This document shows positions 7,426-61,629 of a stretch of 64,000 nt of DNA, one piece after another. The notes beneath the pieces were generated by a model. That model saw nothing but the letters and a program-made list of their open reading frames with translations. It ran no database searches and was not told where the DNA came from. The first letter of the stretch is position 1. Each line of letters opens with the position of its first letter. The position numbers were made by a program, and so were the translations under genes. Source of the DNA: an uncultured Candidatus Saccharibacteria bacterium (GTDB lineage Bacteria > Patescibacteriota > Minisyncoccia > Phycocordibacterales > EsbW-18); NCBI GenBank assembly GCA_964478705.1, contig CAYZIR010000002.1:23760-87759 (forward strand), given 5' to 3'.

Positions 7426-7503
7426 CATGTAACACGTATCATGTAGCATGAGACGTAGAGAAGGTAACGTTTTTGCTTTATGTTACATGATACGTGTTAC
7501 ATG
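7426..7503. repeat. 24-bp inverted repeat (22/24 match) with a 30-nt spacer, between mreB and holB
   Basis: catgtaacacgtatcatgtagcat ... atgttacatgatacgtgttacatg; the right arm overlaps the holB ORF start. Confidence 0.6.
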
Positions 7504-8846: not shown

Positions 8847-9515
8847 ATGACGCCTGCAAAACTTGTTGAACGGAAGAAACGTTTTCAAAAACTGAATACG
8901 GTCTTGAAGAAACTCTATCCTGAAGCAAAAATTGCACTCAATTTCAAAAATAACTGGGAACTGTTGGTCGCGGTTGAACTGTCTGCACAGTGCACTGATA
9001 AAAAAGTGAATGAAGTCACAGCAACGCTTTTTGAAAAATATAAAACACTCGACGATTATGTGAATGCAACCTTTGAAGAATTTTCGCAAGATATTCGCCA
9101 AACCGGATTTTTTAATAACAAAGCAAAGAACATTCTCGCAGCTGCAAAGATAGTGAAAGAAGAATTTGACGGGAAGATTCCAAAAACGATGCAAGAAATC
9201 CTGACAATCCCCGGTGTCGCTCGAAAAACTGCTAACGTTGTGCTTGGAAATGCGTACGGTGTTGTTGAAGGTATCGCGGTCGATACGCACATCAAACGTT
9301 TTTCCCAGAAGTTTGATCTCTCTGACTATACAGACCCGGTGAAAATTGAGCGTGACTTAATGGAAGTCATTCCAAAAGATGAATGGTTCGGATGGACCTA
9401 CCGTTTGATTGATTACGGTCGCGCGATATGCAAAGCAAACCCACACGATTGCACTGAACATCCACTCACAAAAATCTATCCAAAAGCTGCTCACATCTGG
9501 CCAAAAGCGAGATAA
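8847..9515 (+). CDS. nth: endonuclease III family DNA glycosylase (HhH-GPD)
   Basis: N-terminus LYPEAKIALNFKNNWELLVAVELSAQCTD; TGCTACACT -10 element 6 nt upstream. Confidence 0.8.
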   Translation: MTPAKLVERKKRFQKLNTVLKKLYPEAKIALNFKNNWELLVAVELSAQCTDKKVNEVTATLFEKYKTLDDYVNATFEEFSQDIRQTGFFNNKAKNILAAAKIVKEEFDGKIPKTMQEILTIPGVARKTANVVLGNAYGVVEGIAVDTHIKRFSQKFDLSDYTDPVKIERDLMEVIPKDEWFGWTYRLIDYGRAICKANPHDCTEHPLTKIYPKAAHIWPKAR

Positions 9516-20311: not shown

Positions 20312-20355
20312 AAACAAAATCCAATTTCTCACGCTAAGAAATTGGATTTTGTTTC
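20312..20355. repeat. 18-bp perfect inverted repeat (8-nt loop) upstream of grpE-dnaK; terminator and/or heat-shock operator candidate
   Basis: aaacaaaatccaatttct-cacgctaa-agaaattggattttgttt. Confidence 0.6.
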
Positions 20356-23201: not shown

Positions 23202-24686
23202 ATGCCTACTAAACGTCACACAATTTCTCTCAGCAAGCATCTGGATTTGACTCGCAAAAAATTGGAAAAGATTGGTGTTTTTGACGCAACCCTCGGTGTT
23301 GATACGAGACTCTTTATAGATCCTAAGCTTCTCATCAGATCTAAAATTCCCGAATTTAAGACGTCACGTTATAAAATACTGAAACATTTTGCCAAGCTGA
23401 TTCGCATTCATAAGCTATCTACTAAATCTTCACAGCTTGGCGAGATTGCGCTTTCAATGCTTGCGGTTCCCGAACCTCAAGGACTTGCGATTGGGTACGG
23501 ACATACGACGGATCGAGGTGTGGCAATTTCTGAATCAATCGCAAGAAAGATACTGTTACAGCTCAGTGAAATGATGTCTGTTGGATTGCAGGATAAAGAG
23601 TTGGTCGAACTAATGGCGCTGTTTGTGAAAGGATTTGCCTCCGACAGCATCAGTGATCTGTCGGCACATATTATTTATGACGATCTGTGTAGATATACAG
23701 AGCGAATAGCTAAAAAATTAAAGGTAGAAACAACACTTTTTGATGTAGGGGATAAAAAATACCAGTTACCTAAGCACCCTTTTAAAAACTCACAGGTAAT
23801 TTTTGTTCCTCACACTCTACTCAGCCCACTTCCTGTAGCTACTTCATGGGAGGAAATAGAAGCTGCTGCTGCACACAATCGAAAACTGAGGAAAACTTTT
23901 AGTGAAATTGTTAAGCCTAGTGTATATGCTGCGATCAAAGATTTGGAACGTCTGAATCCTGAGGAACGTGAGGATTTCAAGAGCGCGATAGAGAAGCTTG
24001 TTGAAGTCTATCAGGGTATTCGGGTATCGACATATAGCCTGCGACAAGATCGAAAGGGGTATTACGGCATCCAACCGTTTGTAGACAAGGAAGAGTCCAA
24101 TTATATTCCGTCTAACCTACCGACAACTGCGGAGGAACTAATCACTTCGGTTCGAGAGATTATCACACAGTACCAAAAATCTATTGAACATAATGCTGGT
24201 AATCGACTGCTCTATCATCGAACAAAATCAGGTTCAATTTTGAAAAATAAACCCCATAACGAAGACGTCGCTCAAAATTTGTTCTTCCAACTCGCTGATC
24301 AATACTGCTCAATGGCCAATATTCTTTTGTCCAGAGAGCCTAATGCGGGTATAGGTGCTGTTGATTTTTCATTAGGAAAAGGTTACGACTCTAAAATCTT
24401 AGTCGAAATCAAAAAATCTACCAACACTGGACTAGAGAGCGGCTACAAAAAACAAATAACGGCTTACGAGAAAAGCGAGTCATCAAAGCACTCTTTTTTT
24501 GTTGTGATTATCGTAAAGGAAGGAAAAAAGAAGAAAAATGAGTACCCCCCACAACTCCAAACGGTTAAAAATCTATACGACTCAAATGTCAGCAAATCTA
24601 TCTCTACTCCAGAATTGTTTATCATTGATGGCCTGATCTATCCCTCTCCCAGTAAGCGTCGTGAGAAAAGCAATACCTTATCTTAA
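23202..24686 (+). CDS. hypothetical protein with a PD-(D/E)xK-like motif near the C-terminus; candidate restriction endonuclease
   Basis: No recognised N-terminal domain; GAVDFSL...ILVEIKK fits D...ExK; AT-rich; first gene of a four-gene operon with an MTase. Confidence 0.4.
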   Translation: MPTKRHTISLSKHLDLTRKKLEKIGVFDATLGVDTRLFIDPKLLIRSKIPEFKTSRYKILKHFAKLIRIHKLSTKSSQLGEIALSMLAVPEPQGLAIGYGHTTDRGVAISESIARKILLQLSEMMSVGLQDKELVELMALFVKGFASDSISDLSAHIIYDDLCRYTERIAKKLKVETTLFDVGDKKYQLPKHPFKNSQVIFVPHTLLSPLPVATSWEEIEAAAAHNRKLRKTFSEIVKPSVYAAIKDLERLNPEEREDFKSAIEKLVEVYQGIRVSTYSLRQDRKGYYGIQPFVDKEESNYIPSNLPTTAEELITSVREIITQYQKSIEHNAGNRLLYHRTKSGSILKNKPHNEDVAQNLFFQLADQYCSMANILLSREPNAGIGAVDFSLGKGYDSKILVEIKKSTNTGLESGYKKQITAYEKSESSKHSFFVVIIVKEGKKKKNEYPPQLQTVKNLYDSNVSKSISTPELFIIDGLIYPSPSKRREKSNTLS

Positions 24687-24719
24687 TTTTATGGCCCTGT
24701 AGTAGGGTTGGGTTCAAAT

Positions 24720-25580
24720 ATGACCCCAGAACTGCTATATTTAAGGCCTCCCATGGCCACAAAAACGCAAACAAAGAAGGTGTTAGAGTCTGTTGGCCAG
24801 AAGCCGTATTTTCATGGTGATGATTTTGCCCTCTACCACGGCGATTCAATCGAACTCCTTTCAAAACTTCCTGAAAATTCAATCGACATGATTTTTGCCG
24901 ATCCTCCGTACAATCTCTCGAACGGAGGTTTTAGTGTTCATGCTGGACGCATGGTGAGTGTCAACAAGGGTGACTGGGACAGAAGTAAGGGTTTTCAAAA
25001 CGACTATGAATTTCATGTCCGCTGGCTCGAAGCCGTTCGTAAAGTACTAAAACCAGGAGGAACATTGTGGGTGAGTGGAACATATCACTCAATTTATCAA
25101 TGTGGCCATGCCATTCAATCGCTCGGATACCACATTTTGAATGATGTTTCGTGGTTTAAGCCAAACGCTTCGCCAAACTTAAGCTGCCGCTTCTTCACTG
25201 CAAGCCACGAAACATTAATTTGGGCACGCAAAGACAAGAAGGCAAAACACACCTTCAATTACGATAAAATGAAGAATGGTGATTGGGGTAGTGATTTCAT
25301 TAAAAAACCAGGGCTACAAATGCGCTCTGTCTGGTCTGTAGGAACACCAAAGCCGGACGAAAAGAAATTTGGTAAGCACCCGACACAAAAACCACTTGAA
25401 CTTTTGCGCCGTATTGTCCTGGCAAGTACCAAAAAAGGGGATATTGTTCTTGATCCATTCACCGGTAGTTCAACCACAGGTATCGCTGCTGCAAAAGAGG
25501 GTAGGAAGTTTATTGGTATTGATATGGAAAAGAACTACCTTGATCTTTCCGTTAAAAGGTTTAATTCTATTAAAATATGA
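24720..25580 (+). CDS. beta-class N6-adenine/N4-cytosine DNA methyltransferase
   Basis: Motif IV DPPY lies before motif I (DPFTGSSTTGIAA), i.e. beta-class permutation; the ORF track starts it at TTG 24708 but the first ATG is 24720. Confidence 0.85.
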   Translation: MTPELLYLRPPMATKTQTKKVLESVGQKPYFHGDDFALYHGDSIELLSKLPENSIDMIFADPPYNLSNGGFSVHAGRMVSVNKGDWDRSKGFQNDYEFHVRWLEAVRKVLKPGGTLWVSGTYHSIYQCGHAIQSLGYHILNDVSWFKPNASPNLSCRFFTASHETLIWARKDKKAKHTFNYDKMKNGDWGSDFIKKPGLQMRSVWSVGTPKPDEKKFGKHPTQKPLELLRRIVLASTKKGDIVLDPFTGSSTTGIAAAKEGRKFIGIDMEKNYLDLSVKRFNSIKI

Positions 25581-26098
25581 AAGAAGGTGGCTTTGGGGGA
25601 GGAAACACCATAACCGGATTAAACTTTGAAAAGGAGACGGATATCCTTTCTCTTTTGGCAACAAAAGCCGGATACGAAGTCAAAGACAACGTTATTTTCT
25701 ATGAAGGAAAGGAGGTTGCAAGAAACTATCGAAAAAATGGACTTTACAAGTTTCTCGAATCAAAAGGTGTCGACTATAAGAAAATTCTTTCCAAGAAACT
25801 CCTACCGGACGATGCACTTTATGTGATTTTAAACAACACTCTTTTTGTCATCGAAGTAAAGTTCCAAAAGGTTGCAGGTTCGGTTGACGAAAAGCTTCAA
25901 ACCTGCGATTACAAACGGAAACAGTACGCAAAATTGATGGCGCCTCTTAATATCGAGGTTGAGTATATTTATATTTTGAGCGACTGGTTTCGTGCAGAGT
26001 CTTATAAAGACACTTTAGATTACATAATCTCTGTTGGTTGTCAGTATTACTTCAAATATCTTCCTCTGCAAAAATTAGGATTGCCAGTACCGAACTAA
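25577..26098 (+). CDS. small PD-ExK-like protein, putative restriction endonuclease or partner subunit
   Basis: ATGA overlap with the MTase stop (translational coupling); DD...LFVIEVKFQK fits a D-x12-ExK core. Confidence 0.35.
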   Translation: MKEGGFGGGNTITGLNFEKETDILSLLATKAGYEVKDNVIFYEGKEVARNYRKNGLYKFLESKGVDYKKILSKKLLPDDALYVILNNTLFVIEVKFQKVAGSVDEKLQTCDYKRKQYAKLMAPLNIEVEYIYILSDWFRAESYKDTLDYIISVGCQYYFKYLPLQKLGLPVPN

Positions 26099-26106
26099 TC
26101 AAAAAA

Positions 26107-27789
26107 ATGCCTACAATAAATAATTCGACCAAGAAGACTCTTTCGAGTGTATTTGATAAGACTATTTTTAATATTCCTAGATACCAACGAGCTTACTCTT
26201 GGGAGGAAAGCAATTGGCGCGAATTGTGGGACGATATTAAAAATAATGTTCTAGAAAAAGACAAGGAGCATTTTCTTGGAGCAATAATTTATTATCATGG
26301 AGATTCCGGTGGCTCTCGATACACACATTATGAGGTCATTGACGGACAACAACGCATTACCACGCTCACAATCTTAATGCGTGTTCTATATGAAAAACTG
26401 AGAGAAAACAACGTTGAAGTCTATCAGAGATTTGCTGATGAACTCTATGAAAAATATATTGGTGATATAGAAAATGAAACTTTCTTCCTTAATTTAAGTA
26501 AAAAAGATCAAGTTTTCTTTAGAGAGTTTATCCAAAAGAGCGTTCCAATTAGAAAACAGGGGAAGTTAATTTCCAACAAAAGCATAAGAAAGTGTTATGA
26601 ATTTTTTGTAAAGAAAATCGATGACATTTCAAAAGAGAGCGGCATAAAAGAAATTGAAGAATTCTGTTGGGAATTAAAAAAGAAGCTCGAAACTAATTTG
26701 GTTTTTGTCGTCATTGATGTGAATACTGATGTAGATGCATATATGATTTTTGAAAGCATCAATTCCAAAAGACAAGGACTAACAACATCCGATCTTCTTA
26801 AAAACTATATATTTTCGGCTGCTGATCAATACGAAAAGATAAAGCCTGAATCAAAAAAATTATCAATTACAGAAGACGCATGGGACAGGATGGAACAAGA
26901 GCTAGACAGAATTGAAATAAACCAATATGTTCGACACTTTTGGATATCAAACTACGGAAAGGTTTTTGAGAAAGAACTTTATCAACAAATAAAACTCAAA
27001 TTCAATAATAATAACGAGGCGATATTAAACTTCTTTGAGAACGTCGTAACCGAGTCAGAGGCTTATTCGAGCATATTTAATGCAAACATTTCCAACTTTC
27101 CACAAGATGGTCTTCATGCGCTAGAACAACTACGTCAACTAAAAAATAGACAATACTACCCTTTAATACTATCTGCTTTGTCTGGGTGGCCTTCTCAGGA
27201 AGTTTCCGATCTCATAAAACAAATAGCTTCAGTGGCAGTTAGAAGAGCGCTTATTGGCAAAAACCCAAATGAACTAGAGAATTTCTTTGCTGAAAGCGCT
27301 TCAAAACTTAGAACCAAGAATGTTACCCCCCAAGATCTCATAACGATCCTTGCTACAGACTTCTGGATTGAAGACAGCGAGATCTTGGAAGAAATTAAAG
27401 ATACAGATTTCGAAGACCAGGAATACCTTGCAAAGTTCTTACTTAAGGAATTTGAAACAAGCAGTAATCCTGCCAATGAGAAAAGTCTTGGCAAGGTATC
27501 ACTTGAACATATTTTACCTAGAAATCCTGAGAGAGTTGAGGATTGGGATATGAAAGAAGATAGACAGACCGAGCTTGTTTGGAATATTGGCAATCTTGCC
27601 TTAATTGGTCAGACTTACAATAATAAGATGTCTAATAAATCTTTTTTAAAAAAGAAACCTTGGTTTAAGAAAACAGAAATTAAAACAACAGTTATTTTGG
27701 CAGAACACGAACAGTGGACAGAGAAGGAGATCTTAGAAAGAAACGCTCAGGTTGGAAAGTTTTTGATAAGATGGTGGGCAAAAAGTTAA
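26107..27789 (+). CDS. GmrSD-family type IV (modification-dependent) restriction enzyme-like protein (DUF262 + DUF1524)
   Basis: N-terminal DUF262 hallmarks (PRYQRAYSW, DGQQRITT); C-terminal His-Me/HNH-like block (SLEHILP...NIGNLALIG..YNN). Confidence 0.8.
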   Translation: MPTINNSTKKTLSSVFDKTIFNIPRYQRAYSWEESNWRELWDDIKNNVLEKDKEHFLGAIIYYHGDSGGSRYTHYEVIDGQQRITTLTILMRVLYEKLRENNVEVYQRFADELYEKYIGDIENETFFLNLSKKDQVFFREFIQKSVPIRKQGKLISNKSIRKCYEFFVKKIDDISKESGIKEIEEFCWELKKKLETNLVFVVIDVNTDVDAYMIFESINSKRQGLTTSDLLKNYIFSAADQYEKIKPESKKLSITEDAWDRMEQELDRIEINQYVRHFWISNYGKVFEKELYQQIKLKFNNNNEAILNFFENVVTESEAYSSIFNANISNFPQDGLHALEQLRQLKNRQYYPLILSALSGWPSQEVSDLIKQIASVAVRRALIGKNPNELENFFAESASKLRTKNVTPQDLITILATDFWIEDSEILEEIKDTDFEDQEYLAKFLLKEFETSSNPANEKSLGKVSLEHILPRNPERVEDWDMKEDRQTELVWNIGNLALIGQTYNNKMSNKSFLKKKPWFKKTEIKTTVILAEHEQWTEKEILERNAQVGKFLIRWWAKS

Positions 27790-27830
27790 AATAGGACAGA
27801 CACCTTTTTGAAAAATGGTAGAATGGGTGA

Positions 27831-28472
27831 ATGTACATCACCAAAATCGGCCATTGTTGCCTCCGTATCAAGGTTAACGGAGTAACATTCCTCACCGACC
27901 CGGGAGCGTATTCAGAAGGACAGGGGAGTGTCACGGGTATTGATATCATCCTTATCACCCACGAACATGGGGATCACCTCCACATCGAGTCGCTGAAAGA
28001 GGTGTTGAAGAACAATCCGACCGCAGACGTGATTACAAATGCAGGCGTCGGAGCTAAGCTTGGTGAAGCGGGGATTCCGTACACGATTTTGCAGGGAAGA
28101 GACTCATCCGAATCTCGAGGAATCATGCTCGAAGCATTCGATGCGAAGCACGAAGAGATCTTTGAGGACTTCGGTCAGGTGCAAAACACCGGCTATTTCA
28201 TTGCAGAGAAATTCTTTTATCCCGGCGACGCATTCAAAGACCCTGAACGCCCCGTCGATATCCTCGCGCTCCCCGTTGCAGGACCATGGTGCAAAATTGC
28301 TGATGCGGTTCACTATGCCCTGAGAGTGAAGCCTCGTGTCGCATTCCCGGTCCATGATGCAGGTGTCATTGAAGAGCGCCTCGGCAGTGCTCATGGCGCT
28401 CCCGCGCATTTCCTCCCAAAGCACGGCATTGAATTTGTCACTCTCAAAGAAGGTGATTCACACGAATTTTAG
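27831..28472 (+). CDS. MBL-fold metallo-hydrolase
   Basis: HEHGDH motif. Confidence 0.8.
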   Translation: MYITKIGHCCLRIKVNGVTFLTDPGAYSEGQGSVTGIDIILITHEHGDHLHIESLKEVLKNNPTADVITNAGVGAKLGEAGIPYTILQGRDSSESRGIMLEAFDAKHEEIFEDFGQVQNTGYFIAEKFFYPGDAFKDPERPVDILALPVAGPWCKIADAVHYALRVKPRVAFPVHDAGVIEERLGSAHGAPAHFLPKHGIEFVTLKEGDSHEF

Positions 28473-29957: not shown

Positions 29958-30227
29958 TTATTCTAAGTTTCTGCAGAAACCGAGAACCCTTGCACCGGTG
30001 TCGGTGAGGAGATGTTCAAGGGCAAGTCCGTTTCTCCGTTTTGTAATCAAACCAGCCAACGCAAGCTTCCGTAGGTGCTCAGATATCGTTCTGAAATCAC
30101 CTCGGAGTGTGTCGGCGATGTCGAGTCCTGATAGTTTTGGCCGGCGTTCAAGCACGAGCAATATGTTGAGTCGATGAATATTTGCACACCCCTTAAAAAT
30201 TCGTTCCAATTCTTTTTGGTTTTTCAT
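29958..30227 (-). CDS. ArsR/SmtB-family HTH transcriptional regulator
   Basis: 89-aa winged helix (NIHRLNILLVL...LSGLDIADTL...ISEHLRKL); TATACT -10 directly before the ATG, so leaderless. Confidence 0.75.
   Translation of the reverse strand: MKNQKELERIFKGCANIHRLNILLVLERRPKLSGLDIADTLRGDFRTISEHLRKLALAGLITKRRNGLALEHLLTDTGARVLGFCRNLE
29967..29980. promoter_or_regulatory. palindromic operator candidate copy 1, inside the 3' end of the arsR-like CDS
   Basis: Perfect 14-bp palindrome GTTTCTGCAGAAAC. Confidence 0.45.
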
Positions 30228-30246
30228 ACTAGTATAAATCTGCCTT

Positions 30247-30268
30247 CTTAGTTTCTGCAGAAGCTAAG
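30247..30268. promoter_or_regulatory. palindromic operator candidate copy 2, in the divergent promoter region
   Basis: 22-bp near-perfect palindrome CTTAGTTTCTGCAGAAGCTAAG. Confidence 0.55.
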
Positions 30269-30290
30269 AATACTCATTTGGGATAAAGGG

Positions 30291-30842
30291 GTGGTAAAAT
30301 GCGAGTCTATGAAAAAACCGACGCGTCAAAAACGAACAAAGATGGTTGTCGTCAACGACTCTATGCAAAAGGGCTATCGGTATGAGCTCGTAGAACCAAT
30401 CGGTAAAAATTTTGATCCCACATTCAAACCAGATCTGACGCCTAAAGAAATACTCAAGCTCGGCATCTTCGGCGGGCTTCACCTGAACGATTGCACAAAA
30501 GAGTTTCCGAAGAGCTGGTTTGCTGGCGTGCAGTTTTCAAGCACAGGAAAACACGAAGCGAAGCTAAACTATTTTGGTGTAAACGCGTCGCAATCATTGG
30601 CTGAATGGAAACGTAAGGGCTGGGTTTATAAAGATGACCCGCGAGGGTGGTTTCAGTGGTACTGTCGCTACTACATGGGTCGCCGTATCCCGAAAGAAGA
30701 CGCGCGACAAATCAAACGCTGGAAGGCAATCACTCGTCATATTGCCCAAATCAAACACAACTGCAGAGCGGGGGATATCATGTGTCGCCCCGTCCAACGC
30801 CAAGCGCTCCTCCACTGGGCATACGATTCACGAAAATTTTAA
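30291..30842 (+). CDS. hypothetical protein with a conserved W/Y/R-rich C-terminal block
   Basis: GTG start; GWFQWYCRYYMGRR...IKRWKAITRH block of unknown family. Confidence 0.45.
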   Translation: MVKCESMKKPTRQKRTKMVVVNDSMQKGYRYELVEPIGKNFDPTFKPDLTPKEILKLGIFGGLHLNDCTKEFPKSWFAGVQFSSTGKHEAKLNYFGVNASQSLAEWKRKGWVYKDDPRGWFQWYCRYYMGRRIPKEDARQIKRWKAITRHIAQIKHNCRAGDIMCRPVQRQALLHWAYDSRKF

Positions 30843-30855
30843 ACTTCTTAAGCAT

Positions 30856-30895
30856 TTGCACATTCTCAAGTTCTTAAGAACTTGAGAATGTGCAA
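30856..30895. repeat. 40-bp perfect palindrome
   Basis: ttgcacattctcaagttcttaagaacttgagaatgtgcaa; all 20 base pairs verified by hand. Confidence 0.9.
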
Positions 30896-30951
30896 GTGTG
30901 CTGTGAGAGGTTGGGCGGGTTTTCTGAGCTCTATTCAAGCCTATTTCTATT

Positions 30952-30973
30952 CTCTATTTCTGCAGAAACAGAG
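30952..30973. promoter_or_regulatory. palindromic operator candidate copy 3, upstream of gene 31081
   Basis: CTCTATTTCTGCAGAAACAGAG, with a perfect 12-bp core. Confidence 0.5.
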
Positions 30974-31080
30974 AAGCCTCTTTTGTTAATTCGCACCATT
31001 TCACATTCTTGTCTTTTTAAGTCCGAGGCGTATACTCGCGGGAGATTGAACCAACCGATAGACGGGAAAGGAGATGACTC

Positions 31081-52548: not shown

Positions 52549-52821
52549 ATGGCACATAGAAAAGCTGGTGGAACAGCGCGAAACCTGCGAGATTCAAATC
52601 CGAAATTCCTCGGTGTGAAGATTGCTGACGGACAGACTGCAAAAGCTGGTGCGATTATCGTACGTCAGCGTGGTACACCTATCATGCCGGGCAAGAATGT
52701 CGACATGGGCAAAGACCACACGATTTTTGCTCTTAAAGCAGGAGTGGTGAAGTTCGGAACACGACGAAAAATTCGATACGACGGATCGAAAACGACACGA
52801 AAGATTGTCGACGTCATTTAA
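52549..52821 (+). CDS. rpmA: 50S ribosomal protein L27
   Basis: MAHRKAGG...IIVRQRGT L27 signature. Confidence 0.9.
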
Positions 52822-52826
52822 CAAAA

Positions 52827-52862
52827 ACTCTCCCCGCAAAACGGGGAGAGTTTTTGTTATGA
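52827..52862. terminator. bidirectional terminator between rpmA and rplI
   Basis: CTCTCCCCG-caaaa-CGGGGAGAG flanked by an A-run and TTTTTGTT. Confidence 0.7.
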
Positions 52863-59709: not shown

Positions 59710-60030
59710 TTAGTTAGATAGAATAGAGTCAACTGCAATCGTCGCAAATGGCTGGCGGTGTCCGCGTTTCTTGTGGTATCGGCTCTTTGCCTTGTATTTG
59801 ACCACTACAACTTTCTTTGCGCGACCCTCAGATTCGTAGGTTCCAGTGACCTTTGCACCTGCGATGTATGGTGTGCCGATGGTTGTCGTCTTGCCATCAT
59901 CAACGAGGAGCACTTTGTCGAAAGCGATTTTCTCTCCCGCCTTTGCGTCCTTAATGATTTCAGTGGTGAAGCGGCTCTTCTCGGTAACGAGATACTGCTT
60001 TCCGCCGGTCTGTATAACTGCGAATTTCAT
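59710..60030 (-). CDS. rplU: 50S ribosomal protein L21
   Basis: MKFAVIQTGGKQY L21 N-terminus. Confidence 0.9.
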   Translation of the reverse strand: MKFAVIQTGGKQYLVTEKSRFTTEIIKDAKAGEKIAFDKVLLVDDGKTTTIGTPYIAGAKVTGTYESEGRAKKVVVVKYKAKSRYHKKRGHRQPFATIAVDSILSN

Positions 60031-60098
60031 AACAAATGTGATAGTGGAATCATACTAACAGATAATCCGGCCTACGGCAAGGTCTTTTGGAACACATC

Positions 60099-60138
60099 AC
60101 CCTTATTCTCAAGTTCTTAAGAACTTGAGAATAAGGGT
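60099..60138. repeat. 40-bp perfect palindrome sharing its inner 26 bp with the palindrome at 30856
   Basis: acccttattctcaagttcttaagaacttgagaataagggt; all 20 base pairs verified by hand. Confidence 0.9.
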
Positions 60139-60240
60139 CACTTCAAATTCTATAGAACGACAATATATCGTCAAATATGCTCGTTCTTCGAGAAAAACCA
60201 ACGACACCAGCATGCTACAATTGAAGGCAATCACACTCCT

Positions 60241-61629
60241 ATGAAGAACCGTTCCCCGTGGCTCCACCAACTCCGCTCTGATCGCGAGTCAGCACGACTC
60301 TCTCACGATATCTCAACCGATATCGCGATCGTCGGAGCGGGTATCGCAGGTGTCGCGACCGCATTCTTCACGCTCAAGTACACAGACAAAACAGTTACCC
60401 TTCTCGAAGCCTTTAAGCTTGCCCACGGTGCAACAGGACACAATGCAGGACAGGTTACCAGCTATTTTGAGCGAGGTTTTGCCAGTATCTCAGATGAGTT
60501 TGGATTAAAGCTTGCTGCCGAAGGACAAAAAAGTGTTGAAGGTGCGTGGGAACTCCTTGATGAGATGTATACCGACGCAGGGCTCACTATCCCCTTCTCC
60601 CGATTCGAAGGGCATGCTGGCCTCTCAACATTCGACCAAGTCATTTTTCATTTGCGTAACAATCATGCGCGAAAGAATGCGGGTCTTCCTGTCGAGACAT
60701 TTCGCATCTCAGAGAATGCACCCTTTCTTTCAAGTATCTCAGACGAGTACGAGGGGCTTTTCTCGATTGTTCCTCATGCAGACATTCTTGCACTCCTTGA
60801 AACACACGATGAACGTTTTTTTGCCACAATTTCCTATCAAAAAGGATGCTTGAACAGTGCGCTCTTTTGTGAAGAAGTAATTTTGTTCCTCCTCAAACAC
60901 TACCCTGACCGATTTGCCCTTTTCGAACACACGCCTATCGCAAAAATTATACTGCATGATGACAAAGCAATACTTGATGCAGAAACGCACACCATCAGCA
61001 CTTCTCGTGTTGTTCTTTGCACCAACGGTTTCGACAATATTCATGTGATTACTGCCGATGGACTTGATATCGACACGAAGCTCCACCACAACATCCACGG
61101 TGTTGTTGGGTATATGTCGGGGTATCTTGAGAAGATGAACAAACTCCCGGGCGCATGGAGCTATCTTCTTCCGCCCGATGAAGCCGATGAGTTTTATCGA
61201 AGTGACCCCGATACCGGTGATCCATACTTTTTGATTACACGACGCCCCTATGTGTACGAAGAAAAAACTGATCACAATTTGATTTCTGTAGCAGGACCCG
61301 AAGTGTCTCTCCCCGATAGACGACACTATTCGCGAGACACCGACTACCCTGATGCAATCACCGATGAAATTGATCGGTTTGTGAAGCAAACGTATAACAT
61401 CGAACCTAACAAAAAGATTGACTATATTTTTACCTGGCACGGATTGATGGGCTACACAAAAAATCTGGTGCGCTTGGTCGGGCCCGAACCGACACATCCA
61501 GTACTTCTGTATAACCTTGGATGCAATGGTGTCGGCATCCTTCCGTCGGTGTTTGGCGGGCGCAGGATTGCTGACGTCATCGCAGAACGTCCCGTTGCTC
61601 CATCGATTTTTGATATTCCAGGAAAATAA
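60241..61629 (+). CDS. FAD-dependent oxidoreductase (DadA/DAO-like)
   Basis: DIAIVGAGIAGVATAF Rossmann dinucleotide-binding motif. Confidence 0.75.
   Translation: MKNRSPWLHQLRSDRESARLSHDISTDIAIVGAGIAGVATAFFTLKYTDKTVTLLEAFKLAHGATGHNAGQVTSYFERGFASISDEFGLKLAAEGQKSVEGAWELLDEMYTDAGLTIPFSRFEGHAGLSTFDQVIFHLRNNHARKNAGLPVETFRISENAPFLSSISDEYEGLFSIVPHADILALLETHDERFFATISYQKGCLNSALFCEEVILFLLKHYPDRFALFEHTPIAKIILHDDKAILDAETHTISTSRVVLCTNGFDNIHVITADGLDIDTKLHHNIHGVVGYMSGYLEKMNKLPGAWSYLLPPDEADEFYRSDPDTGDPYFLITRRPYVYEEKTDHNLISVAGPEVSLPDRRHYSRDTDYPDAITDEIDRFVKQTYNIEPNKKIDYIFTWHGLMGYTKNLVRLVGPEPTHPVLLYNLGCNGVGILPSVFGGRRIADVIAERPVAPSIFDIPGK

Follow-up and report, generated by a model that had tools for sequence, protein, structure and literature searches.

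What function does a 40-bp palindrome serve between the genes for ribosomal protein L21 and an FAD oxidoreductase in an uncultured Candidatus Saccharibacteria bacterium? The original prediction favored a shared regulator site or a mobile palindromic element over a gene-specific terminator. Patescibacteria (CPR), the group to which this bacterium belongs, have tiny genomes and very few transcription factors, and to our knowledge almost nothing is known about their gene regulation. We analyzed the whole 64-kb stretch of DNA that contains the palindrome (the window) together with related sequences. We propose that the palindrome is a putative 12-2-12 operator of an 89-aa regulator with an ArsR/SmtB fold, which would repress its own gene and modulate rplU. 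We infer the binding, the promoters, and the direction of regulation, and we put the probability of this reading at roughly 0.7. The analysis establishes the motif and its excess over expectation, the tight association of the motif with the regulator gene across lineages, the constraint at the DNA level, the positional conservation of sites, and the ArsR fold.

The palindrome and its motif in the window

The sequence ACCCTTATTCTCAAGTTCTTAAGAACTTGAGAATAAGGGT at 60099-60138 is a perfect 40-bp palindrome, as first reported, with two 20-nt arms and no spacer. When up to three mismatches were allowed, it had no match in 100 dinucleotide-preserving shuffles. Its location also agrees with the earlier description: Pfam identified rplU on the minus strand (59710-60030; Ribosomal_L21p, E=2.5e-31), which is a candidate regulated gene, and on the plus strand a DAO-family FAD oxidoreductase gene (60241-61629). 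Rfam at gathering thresholds and a tRNA scan gave no matches in the whole window, and thus the palindrome represents no known RNA family or L21 leader. The palindrome had been labeled copy 2 of copy 1, a 46-bp palindrome with 23-nt arms and one mismatch (30853-30898), which begins 11 nt past the last stop-codon base (30842) of the gene at 30291-30842. This label is appropriate for the central 28 bp, ATTCTCAAGTTCTTAAGAACTTGAGAAT, which copy 1 shares at 30862-30889, but not for the whole. The outer arms differ (ACCCTT/AAGGGT in copy 2, GCAC/GTGC in copy 1, each pair self-complementary), and there is no full second copy.

The palindromes of the window and of related DNA share the motif TTCTNNNNTTCTNNAGAANNNNAGAA, that is, TTCT-N4-TTCT-NN-AGAA-N4-AGAA, with four invariant tetrads in a 12-2-12 layout. 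The 26-bp core of copy 2 (60106-60131, TTCT-CAAG-TTCT-TA-AGAA-CTTG-AGAA) matches this motif at 16/16 positions and is the proposed operator. The same 26-mer recurs identically in Saccharibacteria, Sungiibacteriota, and metagenome contigs. There are five perfect (16/16) matches in the 64-kb window, while 0.05 were expected and no shuffle contained more than one. They start at 29961, 30245, 30863 (copy 1), 30950, and 60106 (copy 2), and the first four are all less than 1 kb from the gene of the 89-aa regulator.

Three of these sites are centered on CTGCAG and had not been linked to copies 1 and 2 before. The one at 29961-29986 makes up the last nine codons of the regulator gene (VLGFCRNLE). Another, at 30245-30270, is intergenic: the regulator gene and its divergent neighbor, 30291-30842, are separated by 63 bp, within which this site begins 43 nt before the regulator ATG and, as read by eye, overlaps the -35/spacer region ahead of TATACT. 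A perfect version of it was found in the relatives L010-L014. The third, at 30950-30975, is upstream of a promoter-like sequence (31009-31036). While the regulator's own sites have CTGCAG centers, copies 1 and 2 have CTTAAG, identical to canonical sites in other phyla. Therefore, copies 1 and 2 may in fact be bound by a second paralogue encoded outside the window, or the window protein may tolerate both centers.

The gene 30291-30842 (9385-9918 in L010) encodes a conserved protein of 177-183 aa, is divergent from the regulator gene, and has copy 1 directly 3' of it. The protein contains the motif WFQWYCRYYMGRR and had no match in Pfam or NCBIfam. This gene is probably the primary target of the regulator.

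Several other features of the window were noted. A low-GC island at 24000-28000 (0.36-0.41 vs ~0.47 elsewhere) encodes an N6/N4 DNA methylase (24708-25580) and a GmrSD-type restriction enzyme (26038-27789), and is probably an acquired defence island. Three other perfect hairpins (485-517, 20312-20354, and 52819-52859), with arms of 16-18 nt, loops of 1-7 nt, and A-run/T-run arms, look like ordinary bidirectional terminators. At 7426-7503 there is also a pair of inverted arms of 24 nt each, separated by 30 nt.

Probable promoters, and protein contacts versus hairpin formation

On the minus strand, TTGCCG (60080-60075) is followed after a 17-nt spacer by TG-n-TAGTAT (60057-60052). This sequence was read from the window, where it falls just below the threshold of the promoter scan. 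The block TTGCCG-17-TAG(A/T)AT on the rplU strand is common to the window and the contigs L044 and L045, and in the latter two the scan reported it. The sequence at 60052-60080 is probably the rplU promoter, judging from this shared block, and copy 2 is about 20 bp upstream of its -35. If transcription starts about 7 nt past the -10, copy 2 and its counterpart are centered at about -73 in the window and about -61 in L044, roughly one helical turn apart. The rplU strand also carries a stronger match to the consensus, a sigma-70-like TTGACG-16-TAGAAT at 60147-60174 (10/12 consensus positions in the scan), which is absent from L044 and L045. Transcription from this one would place the palindrome in the RNA, at positions of about +2 to +41.

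For the oxidoreductase gene, an extended -10 (TGcTACAAT, 60213-60221, plus strand) can be read from the sequence as a putative promoter element. TGnTAnAnT occurs at the equivalent place in L039, L040, L044, and L045, and thus in five sequences with the window. Relative to this -10, copy 2 is at about -110 in the window and about -55 in L044. Three oxidoreductase homologues (63-64% identical) that are not beside rplU have no motif, and are uninformative for orthology. Since the position of the site is not conserved for the oxidoreductase gene, and the site is absent in homologues away from rplU, it is more plausibly tied to rplU. In these genomes, -10 elements can be very close to the ATG: TAGAAT precedes the rplU start by 9-10 nt in L044 (2814-2830) and L045 (2838-2852), and TATACT is 3 nt before the regulator start in the window (30228-30240). 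Such short distances suggest leaderless or near-leaderless mRNAs in Paceibacteria-like genomes.

The four tetrads are identical across 45 distinct 16/16 sites. In the same sites, the N4 blocks vary (CAAG, CATG, AATG, TAGT, AGGC, and others), as does the central dinucleotide (TA, GC, TT, TG). The N4 blocks are sometimes non-complementary, chiefly at coding-constrained 3' sites (1-3 of 5 variable pairs). Invariant tetrads combined with N4 blocks and centers that vary and are at times unpaired point to a protein that contacts specific bases, and not to a conserved stem.

These observations bear on another explanation, in which the palindrome would be a structured nucleic-acid element. An RNA or ssDNA hairpin might serve as a factor-independent or bidirectional terminator, an mRNA-stabilizing stem-loop at a 5' or 3' end, or an RNase III target, and its apical part might be recognized by a protein. 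Copy 2 does fold very stably (-32.1 kcal/mol as RNA, z = -8.4; -18 kcal/mol as DNA), and the flanks remain complementary past the motif. Several sites either follow a stop codon at a distance of 9-33 nt or separate convergent genes, and A-run/T-run flanks are seen at a few (L004, L007, L037). With TTGACG-16-TAGAAT as the promoter, an rplU transcript would carry the hairpin as a cap at its 5' end. However, the paired tetrads never covary, some N4 blocks cannot pair, and the two-fold symmetry extends through the 'loop' itself. Moreover, copy 2 is upstream of both conserved promoters, that of rplU and that of the oxidoreductase gene, and would not be transcribed from them; it also has no Rfam match. 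We therefore consider a hairpin function quite unlikely. An intrinsic terminator was rejected, as in the original prediction, because copy 2, with a gene start on either side, has an AT-rich stem without a T-run (U-tract) and went unreported in the terminator scan.

For the putative operator, the length of the arms needs an explanation of its own. Perfect complementarity continues past the 20-nt core for a median of 7 nt and a maximum of 14 nt, and outside the 26-bp motif it extends for up to 11 nt. Perfect palindromes of 30-48 bp are common among the sites, and most intergenic sites are perfect far past the length that a protein would require. Part of the flank complementarity belongs to a conserved consensus, ttYA-TTCT...AGAA-TRaa. 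At flank positions 5-9, a fraction of 0.38-0.56 of the sites is complementary, and the sequence differs between sites. The first flank mismatch is a G:T pair in 14/45 sites and any transition-type pair in 21/45, which is a slight enrichment. Since the G:T enrichment is equally explained by transition decay of a perfect palindrome, it is not diagnostic for RNA. The right flank of copy 2, TAAGGGT, mirrors a left flank that is also present in L045, where there is no site, and from the sequence it looks as if one flank had been copied from the other. Correction of quasi-palindromes by template switching is known from E. coli. Provisionally, the perfect and outward-extended arms may be attributed to such template-switch 'correction' of a long inverted repeat, which is the weakest step in our explanation. 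A plain operator needs neither perfect symmetry at non-contact positions nor complementary flanks to 40-48 bp, and a function that requires a hairpin or a cruciform is conceivable.

The regulator and the distribution of sites in Patescibacteria

The 89-aa winged-helix protein encoded at 29958-30227 on the minus strand (or a paralogue outside the window) is the proposed binder. It is borderline in Pfam (HTH_5, 22.8 bits with a cut-off of 22; HTH_20, 26.6 bits with a cut-off of 27), and its relatives match the Pfam ArsR models clearly (36.8-38.6 bits). NCBIfam NF033788, an ArsR/SmtB subfamily, scored 42.7 bits against the window regulator, below its cut-off of 55. An AlphaFold model from a 52-sequence alignment had a pLDDT of 94.6 and the topology alpha1-alpha2-alpha3-alphaR-beta1-beta2-alpha5 (H4-14, H17-28, H34-40, H45-57, E61-66, E69-74, H76-86). 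The best Foldseek matches were ArsR, CadC, PagR, CzrA, SmtB, and HlyU, with TM scores of 0.78-0.87; the winged-helix pNOB8 centromere-binding protein was also in the list, at rank 46. No metal or metalloid site (CxC in alpha3/alpha3N, or a His/Asp/Glu cluster in alpha5) is conserved in the 9- and 52-sequence alignments, in which Cys14 and Cys85 are restricted to the window's clade. ArsR-family members without metal sensing are known, and thus the missing metal site does not exclude membership in the family.

The window's clade has unusual residues in and beside the recognition helix (D44/K54). Proteins with RRL in the recognition helix (Arg54) have F-L-R near the C-terminus in 108/109 cases and F-C-R in none, while those with RKL (Lys54), which include the window's clade, have F-C-R in 4/5. 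F-L-R corresponds to a TTA/TTG codon and a T-centered site, and F-C-R to TGC and a CTGCAG (GC) center. The upstream sites of RKL (F-C-R) family members are likewise GC-centered. The apparent covariation of residue 54 with the central dinucleotide, the latter deduced from the C-terminal codons, probably represents few independent events and is therefore only suggestive.

Our profile search for the regulator retrieved at least 4,004 protein clusters, almost all of 89 aa. Their source names include Patescibacteria, Sungbacteria, Pacebacteria, Minisyncoccia, Brennerbacteria, Liptonbacteria, and Parcubacteria, and the family appears to be restricted to, or centered on, Patescibacteria. Among the matches listed, the C-terminus is exactly ILKFLRTLE in 85/120 clusters. 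A neighborhood with a HAD hydrolase gene, the regulator gene, and dnaJ is kept down to 60% regulator identity.

The sites have a similar distribution. We scanned 185,579 species-representative genomes with the 20-nt core TCAAGTTCTTAAGAACTTGA and found ten exact sites in six reference genomes, all from Patescibacteria (three Saccharibacteria, one Sungiibacteriota, one Campbellbacteria, and one 'Patescibacteria group'). The exact core was also on 20 metagenome contigs, which brings the total to 30 places beyond the window. There were no matches in the viral contig collection scanned. Thus, the two copies are not strain-specific noise, which the original prediction had considered as one outcome. 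Literature searches with the core string GTTCTTAAGAAC, and on palindromes, ArsR proteins, and binding motifs in Patescibacteria/CPR, returned no description of the motif or the regulator.

Many of the sites accompany the regulator gene. Five distinct exact-core sites are directly upstream of a family member (L001, L008, L026/L030, L028, and L029). All six members in which the distance was measured have a site that starts 29-66 nt upstream of the start codon, scoring 16/16 in the window, L001, L008, L010, and L015, and 15/16 in L018. The metagenome scan added three members, each likewise with a site directly upstream. We compared nine independent family members, which are 43-90% identical to the window protein and come from several Patescibacteria lineages. 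Seven of the nine genes have a 16/16 site within the last nine codons; in five of the six measured members this second site begins at nucleotide 241. If ILKFLRTLE were encoded by synonymous codons drawn at random according to the codon usage of these loci, a 16/16 site would be retained with p ~5e-4 per gene, which indicates that the 3' site is constrained as DNA and not only as protein. Both in the window and in no fewer than nine independent relatives, the 12-2-12 core is thus tied to an ArsR-family gene, and this supports the shared regulator site of the original prediction.

The metagenome contigs L002, L021, L025, L028, L031, L036, and L037 end less than ~150 nt from a site, and many regulator-bearing contigs are under 1.5 kb. 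Short-read assembly of CPR genomes may be interrupted at such long perfect palindromes.

Copies 1 and 2 both have orthologous counterparts. In L010, whose regulator is 90% identical, a site at 9350 is at the same place as copy 1, just past the stop codon of the neighboring gene. In the window's orientation it reads TTCT-CAAA-TTCT-TA-AGAA-CATG-AGAA, with all tetrads, imperfect N4 complementarity, and shorter flanks. In L044, where DnaB, RecR, rplU, and the oxidoreductase gene (71% identical) are in the same order as in the window, copy 2 corresponds to a 36-bp perfect palindrome, GCTTATTCTCATGTTCTTAAGAACATGAGAATAAGC, with a symmetric change from CAAG to CATG. L045 (67% identical) has the same gene order and no site in the spacer between rplU and the oxidoreductase gene. 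It keeps the left flank of the window, ...TCACCCTTA, followed by a left-arm match of 9/16 after a 1-nt shift, which leaves two readings, decay of a former site or the ancestral state. The contigs L039 and L040 (88% and 77% identical) end 65 and 45 nt upstream of the oxidoreductase gene, short of the site.

About a quarter of the exact-core sites are intragenic, in holA, hisS, uvrC, and fmt. An identical palindrome is at the same holA codons in L005 (1704-1739) and L032 (3608-3635), where it encodes (S/P)QVLKNLR. Since these holA proteins are only 40% identical, this conservation indicates a DNA-level constraint inside an essential gene. In L023, a site at 718-745 is exactly between the ORFs of the Competence domain and the metallo-beta-lactamase domain of comEC. 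This palindrome has stop codons in 2/3 reading frames, and the site may split comEC or mark a two-gene comEC. Some sites are between convergent genes. Intragenic sites and those between convergent genes are at locations atypical of promoter operators.

Such locations raise the possibility of a parS-like or chromosome-organization site, in which the same winged-helix protein, bound at a few palindromes that are often intragenic, would organize or segregate the chromosome or insulate transcription units instead of regulating particular promoters. The low copy number, the near-identical sequence across phylum-level lineages, the sites held at the same holA codons, and those between convergent genes would fit this idea. 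There is also a site inside the gene of the putative binding protein, and a parS site lies inside B. subtilis spo0J. The pNOB8 centromere-binding protein in the fold search points in the same direction. On the other hand, no ParA/ParB-type partner was found beside the regulator among the neighboring genes, the site over the regulator's own promoter has the classic geometry of autorepression, and the sites of the window are 30 kb apart. Such a role seems very unlikely to us.

Finally, the original prediction had also offered a mobile palindromic element (REP/MITE-like). The palindrome could be such a mobile or selfish mini-element, or one that gene conversion has spread, with a regulator site in it only by chance. 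Identical 28-mers occur at unrelated loci in different phyla, some copies are intragenic, and the spacer of L045, although otherwise syntenic, has no site. Two sites of L021, at 158 and 3996 (orthologues in L022 and L036), share longer flanks that include TTAAGCCAAGAA in either orientation; this pair could be a larger repeated promoter module. Nevertheless, orthologous counterparts exist for both window copies and for the holA copy, the hisS copy of L009 has no gap compared with the window's hisS, and no target-site duplications were seen. There are only 2-5 sites per 64 kb, and 4/5 of those in the window are around one gene. Moreover, viral contigs had no matches, the neighborhood of the regulator is conserved down to 60% identity, and no transposase or RAYT was found among the neighboring ORFs scanned with Pfam. 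A mobile element is thus highly improbable. Other candidates were rejected as well: an RPE-like insertion into genes, because the hisS alignment is gapless at the site and the Pfam model HGTP_anticodon is covered end to end, and an Xer/dif-like 11-6-11 site or DNA-uptake sequence, in view of the multi-copy tetrad motif, the regulator link, and the low density.

Proposed operator function and comparison with known systems

In the repressor-operator reading that we prefer, a dimer, or a pair of dimers, of the 89-aa regulator would bind the 12-2-12 operator and read the four invariant tetrads (TTCT..TTCT / AGAA..AGAA). It would repress its own gene from the site over its promoter and bind a small set of further sites, including copy 2. 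From copy 2 it would modulate the transcription of rplU, and perhaps also of the divergent oxidoreductase gene. An 89-aa regulator and an almost invariant 26-bp site make a directly testable regulon, which would include a ribosomal-protein promoter, the regulator's own gene, and the sites inside holA, hisS, uvrC, and fmt. Recognizing these palindromes could also help explain the fragmentation of CPR genome bins.

Three properties set this system apart as unusual, namely an operator in the regulator's own codons, conserved intragenic palindromes, and perfect symmetry that extends itself. The intragenic sites, those between convergent genes, and those at the 3' end of the regulator gene suggest roles beyond promoter repression, for example, as a roadblock, in looping, or in chromosome marking. 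A further-reaching proposal, which we regard as unlikely, is that the regulator and its sites form a global regulator or chromosome-marking system throughout Patescibacteria. The sites inside essential genes (holA, hisS, uvrC, fmt), in the last codons of the regulator gene, and at gene boundaries would then be protein roadblocks, insulators, or centromere-like anchors, and template switching would continually re-perfect and extend their arms. A binding site would in that case behave as a self-renewing palindrome.

Regulators of the ArsR/SmtB family are reported to recognize 12-2-12 inverted repeats, which can be located upstream of regulated genes or inside them (PMC8790569). Similar to SmtB, CzrA, ZiaR, AztR, and AzuR, the Patescibacteria regulator is a small winged-helix protein of the homodimer type with a 26-bp 12-2-12 dyad. 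The site over its own or the divergent promoter follows the architecture of SmtB/ArsR repressors (PMC8790569). However, the half-site here is TTCTnnnnTTCT, while SmtB/ArsR operators have TGAA/TTCA-type cores. The metal site of alpha3N (CxC)/alpha5 is not conserved in the Patescibacteria regulator, which also differs in the second operator in its last nine codons and in the many perfect palindromes of 30-48 bp.

In CIRCE/HrcA, the LexA box, and the NrdR box, a long inverted repeat is near-identical across lineages, occurs in few copies, and belongs to an autoregulated repressor. The Patescibacteria palindrome resembles CIRCE/HrcA in being nearly identical across distant lineages with few copies per genome. 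It differs from all three boxes in protein family and sequence; moreover, these boxes are promoter-proximal and have neither conserved intragenic copies nor variable complementary extensions. Like parS/ParB and pNOB8 AspA, the latter an ArsR-like winged-helix protein, the system has a short conserved palindrome of low copy number that is often intragenic, with one in the gene of the putative binder; unlike them, it has no partition ATPase or adaptor gene adjoining the regulator. REP/BIME, Correia, and RPE repeats are palindromic, multi-copy, and mostly intergenic, and RPEs can sit in frame inside genes. Compared with these repeats, the Patescibacteria sites have a far lower copy number, add no length to genes, and are associated with no transposase seen here, while their orthologous positions are conserved and their protein-type tetrads are invariant. 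By fold, sequence family, and operator architecture, the regulator and its site are thus an ArsR/SmtB-type repressor-operator pair with putative binding.
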